From Blastocatellia bacterium (GTDB lineage: Bacteria; Acidobacteriota; Blastocatellia; UBA7656), in contig JBJMGV010000126.1 in NCBI GenBank assembly GCA_045807725.1, positions 28,802 to 92,801 of the forward strand: a stretch of 64,000 nt of DNA, in the 5' to 3' direction. A program made the translations under genes and the position numbers. Each line of letters begins with the position of its first letter. The first letter of the stretch is position 1. Positions 2,424-52,911 of this stretch are shown piece after piece. The notes beneath the pieces are model-generated. The model worked only from the letters and a program-made list of their open reading frames with translations, was not told the origin of the DNA and made no database searches.

Positions 2424-2522
2424 TCTTACCTCCTACACGTTGAATTGGTTTATGTACTCGCCGGCCCGCGTTCCAATTGTCCTGCTGGAACAACCAATCG
2501 CAAGAGCCGACAATGGATTTAG

Positions 2523-2603
2523 CGATTTTGGATTGCCGATTTTGGATTGGAGAGACGCGCTGTTGCGTCAGTCCCTTAATCCAAAATCGGCAATCCAAAA
2601 TCG
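2523..2603. repeat. Palindromic intergenic element (GATTTTGGATT arms) between rpsI and rpsB
   Basis: cgattttggattgccgattttggattgg ... ccaaaatcggcaatccaaaatcg, arms of about 25 bp that are perfect inverted complements. Confidence 0.7.
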
Positions 2604-2604
2604 T

Positions 2605-3006
2605 TTAGCGTTTCGAGAACTGGAAGCGTTTACGCGCGCCCTTCTGGCCGTACTTCTTGCGCTCTTTGGCGCGCGGGTCGCGGGTAACGAAGCCGGCGCG
2701 CTTCAGGCGCGTGCGGAATTCGGGATTGAAATCCATCAACGCCCGCGTCACGCCGTGGCGCACCGCGCCCGCCTGACCGGCCTTGCCGCCGCCATCCACA
2801 TTGACCAGGATGTCGAACTTGCCGACGCTGTCGGTAAGGTGCAGCGGCTGGCGGATCACCATGCGATGCACTTCGTTATCAAAATAATCTTCGAGCTTGC
2901 GCTTGTTGACAATAATTTCGCCGGTGCCGGGCTTCATGAAGACGCGCGCCGTCGCGCTCTTGCGGCGGCCCGTGCCGTAGTTCTGAATCGTCTCTGCCAC
3001 GATCAA
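2605..3006 (-). CDS. rpsI: 30S ribosomal protein S9
   Basis: ...[15 protein letters not shown]...[19 protein letters not shown]...[18 protein letters not shown]; exact start (TTG at 3006 or GTG at 3000) uncertain. Confidence 0.9.
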
Positions 3007-3047
3007 CTCTCCTTCAACTCAATTCGGCGGTGGTCGCCGCCGCGCTC

Positions 3048-3488
3048 TTATCGCTTGACCTCGAACGCCTCGGGCTGCTGCGCCTGGTGCGGATGATCCG
3101 TGCCGACGTAGACCTTCAGCTTCTTGCCCATCTGGCGACCGAGCTTATTCTTCGGCAGCATGCCGCGAATGGCCAATTCGAGTATGCGTTCGGGGTGCTG
3201 TTGCAACTGCTTGCGCGCGGTGATCTCTTTCAGACCGCCGGGCCAGCCGGTGTGATGGCGGTAGACTTTGTCCTGCCACTTGTTGCCGGTGAAGACGACC
3301 TTTTCGGCGTTGATGACGATGACGTGATCGCCGACATCAATGTAAGGCGTATAGGTCGGTTTGTTTTTCCCCATCAACAGGCGAGCCGCCTCGGTCGCCA
3401 GCCTCCCAACGGTCTTGCCGTTGGCGTCGATGATAAGCCACTTGCGGCTCTGCTCAAGATTCTTGCCGCTCGGAACGTATGTGCTCAT
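3048..3488 (-). CDS. rplM: 50S ribosomal protein L13
   Basis: MSTYVPS...[23 protein letters not shown]... aligns with L13; internal ATG chosen. Confidence 0.9.
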
Positions 3489-3753
3489 GGTGCGAATCTC
3501 CAAAATAATCGTAAAGAAGACGAACGGATAGGATACGAAATGGCCTTTGTCTTGTCAAGTTAGACGGCGACACGGATTCGAGCCGCGCCGGCAGCCTCAC
3601 GGTCAGGCCATTTCAATCGCTATGTGGAGAACGACAAGGACGACCGAGTCGAGAATGCGCGGGTAATGATGAAAGCTGACGAGCGACTAGCCTCCGCCGA
3701 TTACAACGTACGTGGGATCACAGTCAGAGAAGATCAAGCAGCCACCATCTCGA

Positions 3754-4116
3754 TCAACCGGGAGGCCACGTCAAACTGCGACCGCCGAGCACGTGAGCGT
3801 GCAGATGCGGCACTGACTGGCCCGCCGCATCGCCCGTGTTGATGACGACGCGATAACCGCTTTCGGCAATCTCCATCTGGTTAGCAACCTTGGCCGCGAC
3901 GTAGAGCACGTGGCCCATCAACGAAAGATCGAGCTTCGACATGTCGTTGAGCGATTCCAGGTTGTGCTCGCGCGGGATGACCAGCACGTGGACGGGCGCT
4001 TGCGGGTTGATGTCCTTGATCACCACGACCTGCTCGTCTTGATAGACGTATTCCGCAGGTGTGTCCTTAGCAGCAATGCTACAAAACAGGCAGCTTTGTT
4101 CCGGCATATTTTCCAT
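3754..4116 (-). CDS. HIT-family (histidine triad) nucleotide hydrolase
   Basis: ...CLFCSI...PQAPVHVLVIPREH...HLHAHVLGG HIT motif. Confidence 0.8.
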   Translation of the reverse strand: MENMPEQSCLFCSIAAKDTPAEYVYQDEQVVVIKDINPQAPVHVLVIPREHNLESLNDMSKLDLSLMGHVLYVAAKVANQMEIAESGYRVVINTGDAAGQSVPHLHAHVLGGRSLTWPPG

Positions 4117-4164
4117 AATCGTCTCACTCGTATTATCATCTACGCTTTCGAGCCGAGTCAATCA

Positions 4165-4277
4165 AAAACAGCGGCCAATGACCAGTGGCCAGTGGCCAGT
4201 TTTTGGTTTCAGAGCTTAATCTTGCTTCAATAAAGGATCATGAGAACGACAGCAATTTTACTGGCCACTGGCCACTA

Positions 4278-4285: not shown

Positions 4286-5534
<1,249 letters not shown>

Positions 5535-5637
5535 CCCCTCGCACCGTCATCGAACGTGGTTCATTAACAGGTGATGTTAGCACACGCGCCGAAGCGCTGG
5601 ACAGAAAAAGATGCGCCGCGTCATCATCACAGATGTA

Positions 5638-7143
5638 ATGAAACGAATGATAGCTTTTCTTTTATTGACAGTGGCGACTCTTTTATCTGAGCGGACGATG
5701 GCCGGCATCCCGCAGCACGAACATCACGACACGCAACCGCCCGCCGCTCAGCCGCAGACGAAGCCGGCTGACAAGCCGCCCGCCGACTCACACACGCCTG
5801 CGATGCCGTCGCCGAAAGACCAGCACGCCGGCCACGACATTAGTAATCAACATGACATGGAGCATCAGCACGCCGGCATGGCCAGCGACGGGATGATGAG
5901 CACCGTCACCGGCGGGCCTTTCCGGGCGATGAGCGCGATTGGTTCCGGCACAAGTTTGATGCCGGCGTCTGCGCCCGGTTATATGTGGCACTGGATGAAA
6001 GGCGATTGGGTGCTGATGCTGCACGGCAACTTGACCATCGGCTTCAATCATCAAGGCGGCCCGCGCGGCGTCAATAAAGCCGAGTCGCAAAACTGGCTGA
6101 TGCTGATGGCCGAGCGCCCCGCCGGCGGCGGTCAGTTGATGCTGCGCGGTATGTTCTCTGCCGAACCCTGGACCGCTCCGCGTCGCGGCTTTCCTGAGTT
6201 GTTGCAGACCGGCGAAACCTACAAGGGCCGCCCGATCATTGACGCGCAACATCCGCACGATCTGTTTATGGAACTGGCGGCGCAATACACGCTGCCCTTG
6301 TCAGAACATGTCTCGATCAATCTTTATGGCGGCCCGGTCGGCGAGCCGGCGCTCGGCCCCGTCGCGTTTATGCACAGGCCATCGGCGATGGAGAATCCGG
6401 CGGCGGTGCTCGGCCATCACTGGCAGGACTCGACACACATCACGCACGGCGTGTTCACCGCCGGGCTGACGGCGTGGAAGCTTCGCATTGAAGGGTCAAT
6501 CTTTCGCGGCGCGGAGCCAGACGAGAATCGCAAGGACATCGAGATGGGCAAGCTCGACTCGTACAGCGGGCGCGTCTGGTTCACGCCGACGCCGAACTGG
6601 ACGATGCAGCTATCGCACGGTCGCCTGACCAATCCTGAATTGCTCGCGCCCGGCGATCTGGTTCGCACCACTGCCTCGATCCATCACAACAAAACGTGGG
6701 CCGACGGCAACTGGGCGACGAGCCTGATCTGGGGCCGCAACCACGAAACGCATGGCAACTCGAACGCTTACACGTTCGAGTCAACCGTGAACTTCAAAGA
6801 TAAGAACTACCTCTACACGCGGCTTGAGCTTGGCGATAAGAACGGCCTGTTGCAAGAGAACATCTGGGGGCGGCCCGGACTTGAAGACGCGCACGACCAT
6901 CCAGAGGTCGTTCACGTTGCCGATGCTGACCCGCACGATGAATTAGCTGATCGCTGGTTCCGCGTCGGCGCGATGACGTTCGGCGGCGTGCGCGACATCA
7001 TTGCTGACTCAAGGTTGCGTGTCGGCATCGGCGTGGACGTGAGCTTCTATCACGTGCCCGATGGCTTGAAAGCGGTTTACGGTTCGCAGCCCATCGGCTT
7101 TCGCTTCTTCCTGCGCTTGAGGCCGGGCAAGATGCAACATTGA
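5638..7143 (+). CDS. Secreted His/Met-rich protein, possibly a CopB-like outer-membrane metal-resistance protein
   Basis: Signal peptide MKRMIAFLLLTVATLLSERTMA, then HEHHDT...HAGHDISNQHDMEHQHAGMASDGMM, then an ~400-aa region with alternating beta-strand patterns. Confidence 0.55.
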   Translation: MKRMIAFLLLTVATLLSERTMAGIPQHEHHDTQPPAAQPQTKPADKPPADSHTPAMPSPKDQHAGHDISNQHDMEHQHAGMASDGMMSTVTGGPFRAMSAIGSGTSLMPASAPGYMWHWMKGDWVLMLHGNLTIGFNHQGGPRGVNKAESQNWLMLMAERPAGGGQLMLRGMFSAEPWTAPRRGFPELLQTGETYKGRPIIDAQHPHDLFMELAAQYTLPLSEHVSINLYGGPVGEPALGPVAFMHRPSAMENPAAVLGHHWQDSTHITHGVFTAGLTAWKLRIEGSIFRGAEPDENRKDIEMGKLDSYSGRVWFTPTPNWTMQLSHGRLTNPELLAPGDLVRTTASIHHNKTWADGNWATSLIWGRNHETHGNSNAYTFESTVNFKDKNYLYTRLELGDKNGLLQENIWGRPGLEDAHDHPEVVHVADADPHDELADRWFRVGAMTFGGVRDIIADSRLRVGIGVDVSFYHVPDGLKAVYGSQPIGFRFFLRLRPGKMQH

Positions 7144-7273
7144 GCGCGTGAGGTGGCCATCATTTTTTTGAGGGCGGGTGTAACCTTTGCGGCGGGCGCG
7201 GTGTCTGAGTAAGTAGAGGCGGATTGGAGCCTCCGAAAGGATCAACACTTATTCGAGCAGTGGAGAGGTAACA

Positions 7274-7786
7274 ATGAAGCAATTGAGTAGAATTAAAAAG
7301 ATGGCCATCGCGGGCGCGATGGCTTGCGCGCTGGCTGTGCCGGTCGTGATGGCGCAGACCGACGACGGCGCGAAGGGCGGGCGTCACGGCCACTTCGGCC
7401 AGCGTGGCGAGCATGGTGATCGCGGCGGCTTTGGGATGATGGGCTTTCGTCAGCTCGACTTGACTGACGCGCAGAAAGCGCAGCTCAAGCAGATTCACGA
7501 GAACCACCGCCAGGCTCTTGCGCCGGTGATGGAGCAGATTCGCGCCAAGCGACAGGAGATGCGCGCGGCCAGCGAAAGCGGCACGGTCAACGAAGCCGTG
7601 ATCGCGCAGAAGCTCACCGAGATCGCGCCGCTTGAGGCCAAGGTGGTTGCCGAGCGTGCGCGTGTGCGCCAGGAATCACTCGCCGTGCTGACGGCGGAAC
7701 AGAAGGCCAAGCTCGATCAGATGCGCGAGCAGGCGAAGACTCGCTGGGCCGAGCGTCGCGCTAACAAGCAACAGAAAAATCAGTAA
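7274..7786 (+). CDS. Periplasmic LTXXQ-motif protein (Spy/CpxP/ZraP family)
   Basis: Signal peptide; LTDAQKAQL and LTAEQKAKL motifs; coiled-coil basic protein. Confidence 0.7.
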   Translation: MKQLSRIKKMAIAGAMACALAVPVVMAQTDDGAKGGRHGHFGQRGEHGDRGGFGMMGFRQLDLTDAQKAQLKQIHENHRQALAPVMEQIRAKRQEMRAASESGTVNEAVIAQKLTEIAPLEAKVVAERARVRQESLAVLTAEQKAKLDQMREQAKTRWAERRANKQQKNQ

Positions 7787-7848
7787 CTCTCGTGGGCAAG
7801 CCCGTCATCGGATGGGCTTGCCGCTTTTCAAATCATTGAACAGGAGCA

Positions 7849-8466
7849 TTGCTGACAATCGAGATCGAACAGGTTTCGGAGGAGGAGTTGGTGAGGCTGG
7901 CGCGGGCTGGAAGCGAGCCGGCCTTTGAGGAGATCGTGCGTCGCCACAGCCCGCGCGTCTTTCAGATTGCCAGCCGTTATTTTCGTCAGCGTGAGCTGGT
8001 CGAAGAAGCCGCTCAGGAGGCTTTTCTTAAAGCCTACACGCAGCTTTCAACCTACGAAGGGCGCGGCTCGTTTGAAGGCTGGCTGACACGATTGACGACG
8101 AACCTCTGTTTGAACCTGCTGCGCAGCGCCAGGCGGCGACCCGAAGCCACTGTAGCCGACATCACAGACGACGAAGGCGAATGGCTGGACAATCAATTAT
8201 CCGATCTTTCCGCCGTGCGCCACCAGGCGAGCGAGCGCGGGTTGGTCGCGGCTGACCTCGCCGAGAAAGTTCTCAGTGAGATGTCTGCCGACGACCGGCT
8301 GGTGTTGATGTCGCTCGATGGCGACGACCTTTCGGTCAAAGAAGTCTCGGAGATGACCGGCTGGAGCGAGGCCAAAATAAAAACGCAAGCCTCGCGCGCG
8401 CGCCGGCGAATGCGCCAGGCCGTCGAAGCCTTGCTCAGTCACCGATGGCGCGGGCGTTCTTCATAA
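7849..8466 (+). CDS. ECF (sigma-70 family) RNA polymerase sigma factor
   Basis: ...EELVRLARAGSEPAFEEIVRRHSPRVF... region 2 and a region 4 HTH; TTG start in the track, true start uncertain. Confidence 0.85.
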   Translation: MLTIEIEQVSEEELVRLARAGSEPAFEEIVRRHSPRVFQIASRYFRQRELVEEAAQEAFLKAYTQLSTYEGRGSFEGWLTRLTTNLCLNLLRSARRRPEATVADITDDEGEWLDNQLSDLSAVRHQASERGLVAADLAEKVLSEMSADDRLVLMSLDGDDLSVKEVSEMTGWSEAKIKTQASRARRRMRQAVEALLSHRWRGRSS

Positions 8467-8514
8467 CGAAAAAATAAAGCGCAAGCCGAGAGCCTGCGCT
8501 TTACTGGTGAACTC

Positions 8515-9006
8515 ATGCGAGACCAGCACATCACAAGCTTGCTTGAAGAGGAGCCACTCAGCCGTTTGAGCGACGACGAGCGCGCGATGATCGAAGCGCA
8601 CGTCGCGGCTTGCAGCGAATGTTCGCAGTCGTACCGCGCGGCGCGGCTCGCCGAATCATTGATCGTTGCGCGCGCGGCTGAGACGCAGACCGTCTCGCCT
8701 TTCTTCAAGACGCGAGTGATGGCGGCCATACGCGACCGGCAATTGTCGCCGGAGCCGGCAGCGTGGTTAAGAATCTGGCGGGCCGCCGGCAGTCTGCTCG
8801 TAATGATGACGATGCTGGTCATCGTGCTGGTCGGCGTGAGCGTCTTCAACTCGGCGACGACTGCGCTGCCGTCGCCTGACATTGCCATCAATCAAAGTAT
8901 CTATTCGACTGATGAAGTGATCTTCGGCCCGGACGACGCGGGCGAAGAGACTTACGATCAGGTGTTCGGAACAATCTACGGCTCAGAGGACGGCGATGGA
9001 AACTAG
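8515..9006 (+). CDS. Anti-sigma factor (zinc-finger ZAS-like, single TM)
   Basis: HVAACSECSQ motif, a TM helix LLVMMTMLVIVLVGV, immediately downstream of the ECF sigma gene. Confidence 0.7.
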   Translation: MRDQHITSLLEEEPLSRLSDDERAMIEAHVAACSECSQSYRAARLAESLIVARAAETQTVSPFFKTRVMAAIRDRQLSPEPAAWLRIWRAAGSLLVMMTMLVIVLVGVSVFNSATTALPSPDIAINQSIYSTDEVIFGPDDAGEETYDQVFGTIYGSEDGDGN

Positions 9007-9394
9007 CCTCAAAAACAAATGGCAGATTCGCCTGGCGGTGTTGCTCATCTTCATCATCGGCTTTGTCGCCGGCGCGCTGACCGTGAACGTCTACCGCGCA
9101 CGCCATATGGCCTCTGCGCCGGAGGAGCGGCGCGGCAGGTTCGAGCGCGTGATGGAGCAGTTGAACCTGACCGCCGAGCAGCGCGAGCAGGTGAAAGCCA
9201 TTTTCAACGAGGCCCGCGCGCAACTCAGTGAGATGCGCAAAGAGTCGAGGCCGCGATTCCGCGCGATGCGCGAACAGACTCACGAGCGTTTGCGCAACGT
9301 GCTCACGCCCGAACAGTGGGAACAGTTTCAAAAACTCACTGCCGATTTCAAAGAGCATCGTTCCCGCCGAGCCAACCGCAACGACGAGCCATAA
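8996..9394 (+). CDS. Periplasmic LTXXQ-motif protein (Spy/CpxP-like), second copy
   Basis: TM anchor, then LTAEQREQV and LTPEQWEQF motifs; overlaps the anti-sigma stop, so same operon. Confidence 0.7.
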   Translation: METSLKNKWQIRLAVLLIFIIGFVAGALTVNVYRARHMASAPEERRGRFERVMEQLNLTAEQREQVKAIFNEARAQLSEMRKESRPRFRAMREQTHERLRNVLTPEQWEQFQKLTADFKEHRSRRANRNDEP

Positions 9395-9704
9395 GATTCC
9401 GCCAGCGCTCACACCGTCCGCTCTTATGCACTGCCATGTGCGGTGACTCACCTAGCTGCTTGTTATAGATGCGCGAGCCGCCGCGCTGCTGCTTACGAAA
9501 GGAGTAGATGCCAGAGCCACAGACCCTAACTGCATTCATCACCCTGCGTTCATCACTCATCATTCCTCTGACGACATGCGTGCGGCCCGTGTGCTAGATT
9601 ATTCGCGGCCAGCAACGAGCAATGGGATTGCCCACTCAAGCGACGATCTCCGGCCATCATTTTGATTGTGGCGAAGAATACAAAGAGCGCGGGACGTTGA
9701 AGCT

Positions 9705-11245: not shown

Positions 11246-11503
11246 TCAATAGTGGTATCTGCAAGAAAGGATCCTAATCTTATTCTCTTGTACCTGATAT
11301 ACAAGCCGATGCTCACCGTCTATGCGTCTGGACCAGCATCCTGCCAACTCGTGCTTGAGCGGTTCAGGCTTACCAATCCCCTGAAACGGTTCTTTCTGAA
11401 CTTCCTGGACTAATTTGATAACCCGCAGCGCCTTCTTACGATCTTTCTCAACCCACCAGGCCAAATCCTCAAACGCTAACGGGTCAAATTCCAAGTTTCT
11501 CAC
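11246..11503 (-). CDS. yoeB: YoeB/Txe-family toxin (type II TA)
   Basis: ...GKPEPLKHELAGCWSRRIDGEHRLVY...RILSCRYHY; GTG start; local GC lower than the surroundings. Confidence 0.85.
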   Translation of the reverse strand: MRNLEFDPLAFEDLAWWVEKDRKKALRVIKLVQEVQKEPFQGIGKPEPLKHELAGCWSRRIDGEHRLVYQVQENKIRILSCRYHY

Positions 11504-11693
11504 GAGCGTCCTCTAAAGGGATTCCCTCTTGACGGTCCTTTGCTTCTAAAAGGCGTCGCTTCATAGTCTCGCTCTTCAGCAGGTAGGCGGTCTCTCTTTC
11601 GGATTCGATCTCGCGCCATAGTTGAATCGGGACAATTACTCCAACGGTATTCCCGCTTTCGTCGGATATGTATTGGATTTCAGCCGCGCTCAT
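11484..11693 (-). CDS. yefM: YefM/Phd-family antitoxin
   Basis: MSAAEIQYISDESGNTVGVIVPIQLWREIE...; overlaps the toxin start by about 20 bp. Confidence 0.8.
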   Translation of the reverse strand: MSAAEIQYISDESGNTVGVIVPIQLWREIESERETAYLLKSETMKRRLLEAKDRQEGIPLEDAREKLGI

Positions 11694-11783
11694 TACGCTA
11701 CCTCCTGGCGACAATCACCTTCGAGAAAAATCTATCAAAGCCATACCGTATCTGCAATAGATGCCCCGCAGGCGTTCAAAACT

Positions 11784-46042: not shown

Positions 46043-47020
46043 CTAGTGTTGAACAACAGCGCTGCCGGCGCTTTTGGCCGGCTTGTCTTCGTTGCGCTCG
46101 CTCGCATCGAAGAGATAATCGCGCACGTTGTGGTTCATCTCTTCGGCGGCGAGTTGGATGGCTTCGCTGACTTCGCGGCGGTTGAAGCGGTGGTCGCGCG
46201 CCAGGCTTTTTTCGACCAGCTTGCGCACACGCTTCTGTACTTTTGTCAGCCAGCGGCTGATCGTCGCTTCGTGAACGTCGAACAACTGGCCAATCTCGCG
46301 CAGCGTCATCTCTTCGTAATAGTAGTAAGCCAGCAGCAACCGCTCGCGCGATTCAAGCTCTTGAATGGCGCGACGCAACGCATCGGCGACGCCCAGGCGA
46401 TAACGGTCGTTGATGAACGAGACTTCAGGCACAACCGGATGTTCGACCGCGCCGGCGCTGGCCAGCCGATCCATATCTTCAGGCTCCTCGGTCTGCACCA
46501 ATCGACTGGTCTGCCGGTGCTGATCGGCGGAGAGCTGAAAGACGACTGCCCGCAGCCAGCCGCGCAGCGAGCCGCGACCGGAATAGAACGAGAACTTGCT
46601 GACGCGCACGCCCGCTGATTCGCGCAGGCCGTAGAGTTCAGCAAAAGTCGAATCGGCCAGTTGCTCTGCCGCCCCGGCGTCCTGTGTCATCGTCCGCGCA
46701 ATGTTGATGAGATAAGAGCGATAGTCGCGGTAGAAGTCGGCCCACGCCGCTTCATCGCCGCGCGCACAGGCGACCGCCAGCGCAAGGTCGTCGCTGTTGA
46801 GCGAGGCGAAGTAATCGGCGACCGACTGCCGCGCTTCAGGGCTGGGGCCGGGGTTGCCGACCGTCTGTTCGATCACGGCAGCGAGGTACTTTTTCGCAGA
46901 GGCGTGCAGCGCCGCGGCCAGCTCCGCTTCGCCGACGCTGTAGGGCTGGCGTATGCGCGCCGCGACTTCTTTGATCTCGTTGTTGAACGCTTTATGAAAG
47001 TCTTCAACCGTCATCGTCAA
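46043..47020 (-). CDS. Sigma-70 family RNA polymerase sigma factor (ECF-like with N-terminal extension)
   Basis: Region 2 ...AEQLADSTFAELYG...; region 4 ...EEMTLREIGQLFDVHEATISRWL... Confidence 0.8.
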   Translation of the reverse strand: MTMTVEDFHKAFNNEIKEVAARIRQPYSVGEAELAAALHASAKKYLAAVIEQTVGNPGPSPEARQSVADYFASLNSDDLALAVACARGDEAAWADFYRDYRSYLINIARTMTQDAGAAEQLADSTFAELYGLRESAGVRVSKFSFYSGRGSLRGWLRAVVFQLSADQHRQTSRLVQTEEPEDMDRLASAGAVEHPVVPEVSFINDRYRLGVADALRRAIQELESRERLLLAYYYYEEMTLREIGQLFDVHEATISRWLTKVQKRVRKLVEKSLARDHRFNRREVSEAIQLAAEEMNHNVRDYLFDASERNEDKPAKSAGSAVVQH

Positions 47021-52343: not shown

Positions 52344-52911
52344 GCATCATCTGTTCGCCCGCTAACGTGTGCCGCCCGGTCAATCGCTGCTCGTGTTCAA
52401 GCAGCCACTTCTTGCGCCACAGCCCGCCGCCATAGCCGCAGAGGTCGCCATCGGCGCGAATCACTCGATGACAAGGGATGACGATGGCCAGGCAGTTGCG
52501 GCCATTGGCTCGACCGACGGCGCGCACGGCGCGCGGGTTACCGACTTGCTCGGCGAGTTGCAGGTAAGACCACGTCCGGCCCGGTGCAATCGTCTGTAGC
52601 TTTGCCCACACATCGCGCTCAAAGGCTGTGCCGCCGATGACCAGCGGAATCGTAAACGATAGCGAGCGGCCCGCGAAATAATCCTCCAGTTCGCGGCTGA
52701 TCTGATTGAGGTGAGCGTTATTGCCCGGCACAACCTCGCATTGAACGCGCGACTGTATGCCGGTGATCTCACTCTCCAGTTCGCGGCGGTCTACGAATTC
52801 GAGCAGGTGCAGTCCGTCCTGATCGGCTAAGGCGAGCATCGCACCGAGCGGCGTTTCGATTTGACGTGAGTGTAAGCGGGGCGTCGTCGTAGGCGTTGGC
52901 AGCTTGTCCAT
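52321..52911 (-). CDS. ogt: Methylated-DNA--protein-cysteine methyltransferase
   Basis: ...IPCHRVIRADG... active-site PCHR motif; C-terminus overlaps the psuG end convergently. Confidence 0.8.
   Translation of the reverse strand: MDKLPTPTTTPRLHSRQIETPLGAMLALADQDGLHLLEFVDRRELESEITGIQSRVQCEVVPGNNAHLNQISRELEDYFAGRSLSFTIPLVIGGTAFERDVWAKLQTIAPGRTWSYLQLAEQVGNPRAVRAVGRANGRNCLAIVIPCHRVIRADGDLCGYGGGLWRKKWLLEHEQRLTGRHTLAGEQMMLNLAATD

Follow-up and report, generated by a model that had tools for sequence, protein, structure and literature searches.

The five co-oriented genes g1 to g5 near the start of a 64,000-nucleotide stretch of a Blastocatellia genome (contig JBJMGV010000126.1; this whole stretch is called the window here) belong to two independent entities, namely an operon built around an extracytoplasmic function (ECF) sigma factor, g2-g5, and a gene, probably acquired separately, for a porin-like outer-membrane protein, g1. 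Our explanation of the whole region, to which we assign a probability of about 0.6, is that g2-g5 is an autoregulated envelope-stress operon of the ECF281 type and that g1 is a separate, metal-associated porin. All five open reading frames (ORFs) lie on the forward strand, at 5611-7143, 7274-7786, 7849-8466, 8515-9006 and 8996-9394, with intergenic gaps of 130, 62, 48 and -11 nt in that order. This layout had already been described in an earlier note on the same DNA, which took the five genes for one self-contained unit responding to periplasmic metal or misfolding stress. The ORFs are confirmed, except that the start of g1 moves from 5611 to 5638, and the proposed unit holds for g2-g5, which are conserved together, but not for g1, which is separated from them in relatives.

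Base composition is even over the region. Identical proteins are deposited at NCBI from a 256,724-bp contig of a Blastocatellia metagenome-assembled genome for g1 (MFL6216450.1), g3 (MFL6216452.1) and g5 (MFL6216454.1), and the g4 sequence is identical to that of P0271. The NCBI label of g1 is "hypothetical protein" and that of g5 is "Spy/CpxP family protein refolding chaperone."

The g2-g5 Operon and Its Promoter

A metagenome scan with the sigma factor alignment gave 68 sigma-ortholog loci in total, at which genes were counted only where the contigs reach far enough. Under this rule, g4 and g5 follow the sigma gene at all 39 loci (39/39), and g2 precedes it at 39 of 42. Four loci found through g4 (L085 to L088, with 63, 59, 58 and 38% identity) all have the order LTXXQ protein, sigma, anti-sigma, LTXXQ protein. 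The homologs recovered by the g4 and g5 searches were Blastocatellia sequences only. Judged by gene order across these loci, g2-g5 is a conserved four-gene unit.

The unit is preceded by a candidate promoter, GTAACC-N14-GGTGTCT (tGTAACC with its preceding base), at 7180-7206 (+), after which the g2 start codon follows at a distance of 68 nt. ECF promoters typically have AAC at -35 and GTC at -10, and a promoter before a sigma-encoding operon is the usual autoregulatory arrangement. The motif is invariant in an alignment of six loci whose flanks have diverged, and it occurs in 32 of 34 orthologous g2-upstream regions with fixed spacing and an unconserved spacer sequence. It is present as a single copy in the 64-kb window; a second site at 52515-52541 (-) was rejected, having three mismatches and lying below chance expectation. 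We therefore presume that 7180-7206 is the autoregulatory promoter of g2-g5. The earlier note had advised searching for an ECF promoter ahead of both 5611 and 7274, and only the second of these searches succeeded, as nothing comparable precedes g1 in the window or its homologs at loci L002 to L084.

Many relatives of the operon carry one or two additional copies of this promoter pointing in the opposite direction. Two kinds of divergent target occur: one is an HlyD/MacA-like adaptor with an ABC ATPase and a MacB_PCD/FtsX permease after it, and the other is a secreted coiled-coil protein (about 255 aa) that matches no Pfam family. Some loci have both. For instance, the promoter at 4204-4230 (-) of L121 is followed by genes at 2491-4164, 1641-2534 and 408-1631 (all -), and that at 4036-4062 (-) of L095 is followed by a gene at 3258-4028 (-). 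Further divergent copies were found at L093, L102, L113, L114, L118, L125, L126, L129, L137, L142, L147-L149, L152, L158 and L169. The window lacks such targets because its divergent neighbor is murA. At L169, which comes from a long-read assembly, gene calling gave one 349-aa product (5962-7011) for sigma and anti-sigma together and broke the adjoining adaptor gene into fragments, which probably reflects frameshift errors of the assembly and not a real fusion.

The gene context corresponds to an already catalogued, computationally defined type, ECF281, described by Casas-Pastor et al. (2021, Nucleic Acids Research) as derived from the CnrH-like ECF20, with a zinc-finger anti-sigma factor at position +1 and, at +2, a protein of the "heavy-metal resistance" family PF13801 (PMC7826278). 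The order g3-g4-g5 fits this description exactly, although the match is one of gene context and the group itself is defined by sigma phylogeny and hidden Markov models. By this context, g2-g5 is an ordinary though uncharacterized example of ECF281, for no member of which did our literature search find an experimental paper. New with respect to the published description, which has neither a -1 Spy-like gene, nor this promoter motif, nor MacAB coregulation (PMC7826278), are the first two of these features, the divergent targets and the absence of conserved metal ligands.

Operon Proteins and the Nature of the Signal

The Pfam and NCBIfam matches of g2-g5 bear out the earlier view that two LTXXQ proteins bracket an ECF sigma factor and a zinc-finger anti-sigma factor. 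The first gene, g2 (7274-7786, +), is predicted to encode a soluble periplasmic Spy/CpxP-family protein of 170 aa with a cleavable signal peptide. It matches PF13801 (2.7e-13, 50.6 bits, cutoff 29.2) and PF07813 (1.2e-10, 42.4 bits, cutoff 24.3), carries the LTXXQ motifs LTDAQ (63-67) and LTAEQ (139-143), and has a Gly/Arg-rich mature N terminus. The last gene, g5 (8996-9394, +), encodes 132 aa and belongs to the same family, with an N-terminal transmembrane (TM) helix that is predicted to anchor it at the membrane with its LTXXQ motifs (LTAEQ and LTPEQ) in the periplasm. Its matches to PF13801 (6e-9, 36.5 bits) and PF07813 (2e-8, 35.3 bits) also lie above the gathering thresholds (29.2 and 24.3), so that the PF07813 check proposed earlier is passed by both proteins. 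The solved structure closest to each is Spy (3.4e-4 for g2 and 3.6e-4 for g5), followed by CpxP, and neither CnrX nor ZraP is matched at E<=10. Against the NCBIfam equivalogs for Spy, CpxP and ZraP, g2 and g5 reach at best 52 bits where the cutoffs are 148 to 200; by these scores they are family members, not orthologs of the Escherichia coli proteins.

The sigma factor g3 (7849-8466, +; 205 aa) has only the sigma2 and sigma4 domains, matching PF04542 (8e-18), PF08281 (2e-9) and TIGR02937 (above cutoff) over regions 2 and 4_2 without reaching any equivalog cutoff. Its domains, the adjacent anti-sigma gene and the conserved upstream motif place it in ECF group 4. The product of g4 (8515-9006, +; 163 aa) matches zf-HC2 (1.6e-5, 25.3 bits, cutoff 22.2) and the anti-sigma NCBIfam model NF052375 (6e-12), and appears as a single-pass membrane protein with a cytoplasmic anti-sigma domain, a TM segment at about residues 86-112 and an acidic periplasmic tail of about 50 aa. 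The ligands H5...H29xxxC33xxC36 are 100% conserved in 47 orthologs, and on this pattern g4 is a class I zinc-binding anti-sigma factor (ZAS) with predicted zinc binding. In its tail, the motif Y-D-Q-V...Y is invariant in six orthologs. The start of g5 overlaps the stop of g4 by 11 nt, as the earlier note had observed, and an overlap of 11 to 17 nt is kept in L085 to L088, which suggests translational coupling.

The strongest competitor to an envelope-stress operon, with a clear minority of the probability, is a metal sensor like CnrYXH, in which g5 and possibly g2 would bind Zn, Ni, Co or Cu and signal through g4, with g1 again separate. In CnrYXH of Cupriavidus metallidurans (ECF291), an autoregulated operon encodes a TM-anchored periplasmic PF13801 protein, its partner, a single-pass anti-sigma factor, and the ECF sigma factor which the latter holds (PMC6851896). 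In favor of this reading, CnrX is also TM-anchored, docks to the C terminus of its anti-sigma factor (PMC6851896) and gives PF13801 its family, and a few His residues are present in the Gly-rich N terminus of g2. However, CnrX, the protein on which PF13801 was founded, depends on a 3N2O(+S) ligand set made up of His42, His46, Glu63, His119 and Met123 (PMC6851896), and in the periplasmic domain of g5 not one His, Met or Cys exceeds 12% conservation among 43 orthologs. Because these residues are unconserved, a CnrX-type metal site in g5 was ruled out. The His residues of g2 number only 0 to 3 and are 2 to 61% conserved among orthologs, and both proteins, as described above, match Spy but neither CnrX nor ZraP. 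Moreover, g4 is a class I ZAS, whereas CnrY belongs to class II; the gene order differs; and relatives coregulate MacAB-type pumps rather than metal pumps of the resistance-nodulation-division (RND) or cation diffusion facilitator type, with no linked pump of the cnrCBA kind.

The lack of CnrX-type ligands in g5, the closeness of both LTXXQ proteins to Spy and the MacAB-type genes driven by the same promoter in relatives thus favor envelope or misfolding stress over metal sensing as the stimulus. Of the two stimuli offered in the earlier note, misfolding is therefore the one retained and metal the one disfavored.

Relationship of g1 to the Operon

The earlier note's own model, in which all five genes make one metal-stress module with g1 as an effector or sensor under the ECF sigma factor, appears improbable to us. 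It draws on the position of g1, which is adjacent and co-oriented in the window, at loci L001 and L089 and on three more contigs, all short (P0275/P0340, P0280/P0002 and P0285/P0004), on the metal association of the g1 family, on the matches of g2 and g5 to the "Metal_resist" model and on the lack of a strong terminator after g1, where only a T-run and a weak, nonsignificant hairpin were found between g1 and g2. Nonetheless, among 84 loci with g1 homologs, the five-gene arrangement recurs only in L001 (g1 83% identical), and none of the other 83 has homologs of g2-g5 within 10 kb. Seen from the sigma factor, g1 stands ahead of g2 at only 2 of the 21 ortholog loci with enough contig and is absent from 19. 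In L085 to L087, the operon has the murA-HIT pair of the window as its divergent neighbor, and g1 is missing from that site. In one of these genomes, GCA_035248905.1, the operon (L085) and an 82%-identical ortholog of g1 (L005) are located on separate contigs. The missing ECF promoter upstream of g1 and its homologs, together with the fact that g1 is not CopB, also tells against a joint module.

The spacer between murA and the operon allows the difference to be placed exactly. About 95 bp of it, on the murA side, are conserved across the five genomes aligned; in the window and L001, g1 starts right after the conserved TGGACAGAAAAAGA element, and the other genomes continue from there into the g2 promoter. 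The adjacency is confined to one Blastocatellia subclade, with anti-sigma identities of about 65% or more. On this alignment, whether g1 stands next to the operon or not goes back to a single event at one defined point, either an insertion, which we favor and take to be recent, or a deletion, and g1 is, by these comparisons, not part of the g2-g5 module. Adjacency alone would have wrongly merged two unrelated systems.

The same alignment bears on where g1 begins. The longest ORF runs from the ATG at 5611, and the NCBI annotation uses the ATG at 5638 (501 aa, MKRMIAF...), which gives a canonical signal peptide. Since the ATG at 5611 falls within a part of the spacer that genomes lacking g1 conserve as well, 5638 is likely the true start.

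Proposed Mechanism

For the operon, the computed results are which genes it contains, how well the four stay together, its promoter motif, the ZAS ligands of g4 and the lack of conserved ligands in g5; for g1, they are the porin fold, the fusions and neighborhoods of the family and the insertion point. The following sequence of events is proposed on that basis. In the resting state, the membrane ZAS g4 would hold the sigma factor g3, and overlapping translation would produce g5 in a fixed ratio to g4. Joining the TM helix and periplasmic tail of g4, g5 might keep it inhibitory and protected from proteases. Envelope damage, most likely in the form of unfolded periplasmic proteins or membrane-active compounds, would titrate or remove g5, whereupon g4 may be inactivated or proteolyzed and g3 set free. 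Transcription by g3 from TGTAACC-N14-GGTGTCT would then supply more g2, the soluble periplasmic chaperone, first gene and main output, as well as the regulators themselves. In related genomes, g3 would also raise the divergent MacAB-type efflux pump or the secreted coiled-coil protein.

In our proposal, g5 would act as an accessory regulator that binds g4, by analogy with CpxP for CpxA and CnrX for CnrY, because g4 is a ZAS with a conserved tail, the TM helix of g5 is conserved, metal ligands are missing, the protein resembles Spy and the gene overlap is kept. The TM helix is in fact among the best-conserved parts of g5 (W9, Q10, R12, F19, G22, F23, A25, G26, L28, N31 and Y33). In E. coli, the periplasmic LTXXQ protein CpxP is both a member of the regulon and an inhibitor of the membrane sensor CpxA (PMC7593790). 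The proposed logic of g5 would be that of CpxP, and g2 and g5, with two LTXXQ motifs each, are nearest to Spy and then to CpxP, but here the partners are an ECF sigma/anti-sigma pair instead of a two-component system, and of the two LTXXQ proteins, g5 has a membrane anchor.

That g4 is an RsrA-like cytoplasmic thiol or redox sensor, in which Cys oxidation frees zinc and the sigma factor and the LTXXQ proteins are mere outputs, is highly improbable: its HxxxCxxC motif and upstream His are complete and invariant, but the protein is membrane-anchored with a conserved periplasmic tail, apparently translationally coupled to a membrane-anchored periplasmic partner and linked to a periplasmic or envelope-related regulon, and most membrane ZAS anti-sigma factors, such as RsiW, are not redox switches, whereas the redox-sensitive RsrA is soluble.

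Several observations weigh against an envelope-stress operon accompanied by a separate metal-associated porin. On the operon side, PF13801 was built on a metal sensor, the Prokaryotic Genome Annotation Pipeline calls some g5 orthologs "periplasmic heavy metal sensor," some g2 orthologs have a ZraP-like HGGHGKGWG stretch, and the authors of ECF281 predict a link to heavy-metal stress (PMC7826278). In addition, the AlphaFold2 model of g5 is poor, with a predicted local distance difference test (pLDDT) score of 54 and no meaningful Foldseek match, so only its helix pattern is usable. With no convincing terminator between g1 and g2, transcription of g1 could read through into the operon in the g1-bearing subclade. 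Finally, the conserved g1 loops are modeled at pLDDT <50, and the His-lined pore is deduced from the sequence.

The g1 Family of Porin-Like Proteins

The most novel element of the region is the large unannotated family to which g1 belongs. Read from 5638 to 7143 (+), g1 is predicted to be a secreted outer-membrane protein with a signal peptide, a disordered N-terminal region rich in His, Met, Pro and Gln (nt 5704-5892, +) and a conserved core (nt 5893-7140, +). The His/Met-rich stretch pointed out earlier is indeed present, as 9 His, 3 Met and 10 Pro are found among the 63 residues 32-94 (pLDDT <50), and His plus Met account for 20% of the 60 residues preceding the core. The beta-rich domain that was to follow it is borne out by AlphaFold2, which models about 16 strands at pLDDT 80 to 88. 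Strand count and structural matches agree with one another for a predicted 16-strand porin fold, in whose model loops L2 (185-218) and L3 (245-277) are at pLDDT <50. These are the two longest loops, in which invariant His, Asp and Glu residues of the core are sited, including H214-P-H216-D217, H255 and H269-H270-W. The protein contains no cysteine and is therefore unable to bind haem c.

The resemblance to CopB/PcoB suggested in the earlier note is confined to architecture. PcoB consists of an outer-membrane beta-barrel that follows a poorly conserved, disordered, His/Met-rich periplasmic N-terminal domain (PMC12509749), and g1 is organized in the same manner. Homology was ruled out by sequence, by profile and by strand count, with 16 predicted strands in g1 against 12 in the monomeric PcoB barrel. 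Neither g1 nor any of the 46 aligned members of its family matches PF05275 at E<=1, and g1 has invariant loop His motifs that set it apart from PcoB. Equally, no multicopper oxidase (PcoA/CopA) flanks g1, whose neighbors are murA and g2, and none occurs in the scanned recurrent neighbor clusters. No porin family of Pfam is matched by g1, and the family profile finds only low-complexity noise among PDB sequences at E<=10.

The family itself has no Pfam model. A word-indexed search returned at least 7,947 matches for g1, and an exhaustive HMMER search of 1.84 billion representatives gave 3,157 clusters (50% identity) at E<=1e-3 and 747 at E<=1e-30. At least 480 loci lie in GTDB species representatives, distributed over Acidobacteriota, Gemmatimonadota, the nonphotosynthetic cyanobacterial lineages Melainabacteria/Sericytochromatia, Armatimonadota and Myxococcota. 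Among 150 diverse representatives, HPHD is present in 132 and HHW in 106. The N-terminal modules vary more. A share of His plus Met of at least 15% in the 60 residues before the core was found in 97 of 112 close relatives and 45 of 111 broad representatives, and the CXXCH haem c motif in 74 of the same 112 but only 7 of the 111. Within the 120 relatives among the matches listed, a cytochrome c domain (PF13442/PF00034) is fused in 75, a copper-type HMBD (PF19335) in several and a BNR propeller in one. Where present, the cytochrome belongs to class I (PF13442) and spans about 100 aa, and a His-rich linker, again of about 100 aa, lies between it and the barrel. The cytochrome c, HMBD and BNR fusions, and neighbors of related kinds, are exemplified by homologs P0009, P0018, P0025, P0030, P0038 and P0076 and loci L008, L009 and L013.

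At the 84 g1-family loci, RND pumps are neighbors at 14 and HMBD-bearing P1B-ATPases at 11. Other recurrent neighbors are CusB-like adaptors with HMBD, a TolC-like factor and thioredoxin-like, cupredoxin-like and BNR proteins. Clean counts could be made only for the RND pumps and P1B-ATPases, and the CusB-like, redoxin, BNR and cupredoxin neighbors were told apart by reading their sequences. Single homologs lie in a cytochrome oxidase operon with SCO1 and beside a redoxin and a Cu-type ATPase. At L013, L014 and L016, a TolC-like factor, a CusB-like adaptor and an RND pump stand just upstream of the g1 homolog. The fused BNR protein is also found as a stand-alone neighbor of g1 homologs, as are the thioredoxin-like and cupredoxin-like proteins.

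From the N-terminal fusions and the neighboring genes, our best guess for the role of the family is metal handling, probably of copper. In g1, a transition metal, with copper as the most plausible one, would probably be bound by the His/Met-rich periplasmic tail and the His-lined loops (HPHD and HHW) and then be passed by the protein across the outer membrane, with a metal specificity and a transport direction that we infer. More tentatively, and at somewhat less than even odds, the family as a whole could be a large unnamed group of porin-fold channels specialized for outer-membrane transition-metal traffic or redox chemistry, with a His-lined pore fed by modular periplasmic N termini in the form of His/Met-rich tails, copper-binding HMBD domains or class I cytochrome c.

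Known outer-membrane proteins resemble g1 only in part. The predicted fold of g1 is that of known porins, but from OprP/OprO and general 16-strand trimeric porins its family differs by the N-terminal metal-binding or cytochrome extension and by loop His, Asp and Glu residues in place of Arg/Lys ladders. Cyc2 of iron oxidizers is comparable in that many close relatives of g1 likewise join a porin-like barrel to a c-type haem motif at the N terminus. In contrast, the g1 of the window has no Cys, and its relatives have a class I cytochrome and a long His-rich linker; this comparison is one of architecture. Thus, g1 belongs with neither PcoB nor Cyc2.

Genomic Context

The genes that flank g1-g5 are housekeeping or unrelated genes. 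Upstream of g1, on the opposite strand, are a murA-like gene (EPSP_synthase family), a HIT-family gene, rplM and rpsI, named from ORF translations and the Pfam labels of the syntenic L001 genes. Downstream of g5 follow a proS-like ORF, whose counterpart in L087 matches the ProRS Pfam families, a YoeB/YefM toxin-antitoxin pair and a BrkB-family protein. The pair, of type II and lying downstream of the proS-like ORF, consists of overlapping genes at 11246-11503 (-) and 11484-11714 (-), with a YoeB-family toxin (PF06769, 1.9e-34) and a weak Phd/YefM antitoxin match.

A short hairpin, GAGGC-N8-GCCTC, lies at 7216-7233 (+), at the start of the predicted g2 5' untranslated region. By folding energy alone it is not significant (z = -0.97), and it has no Rfam match; hairpins of other sequence occupy the same place in orthologous leaders, such as GGGAGGC..GCCCTCC in L093. 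An Rfam scan of 5400-9700 returned nothing relevant. Elsewhere in the window, a 325-aa ORF at about 46043-47020 (-) is distantly similar to sigma-70/ECF factors (24% identity with g3 across 203 aa, E 1.5e-8) and may be an ECF sigma factor with an extension.

Implications

The g2-g5 operon offers a concrete, testable example of the uncharacterized ECF281 type, with a defined promoter, a Spy-like output, to which MacAB-type efflux is added in relatives, and a candidate accessory regulator. For this clade, the "heavy-metal" label on PF13801 neighbors of ECF sigma factors may mislead. Members of the g1 family are widespread in soil bacteria and are currently annotated as "hypothetical" or, through the fused domain, as "c-type cytochrome." If the role proposed here is true, the family would consist of metal porins of a new type, and those of its members that are fused to a cytochrome would be novel cytochrome-porins, different from both PcoB and Cyc2.

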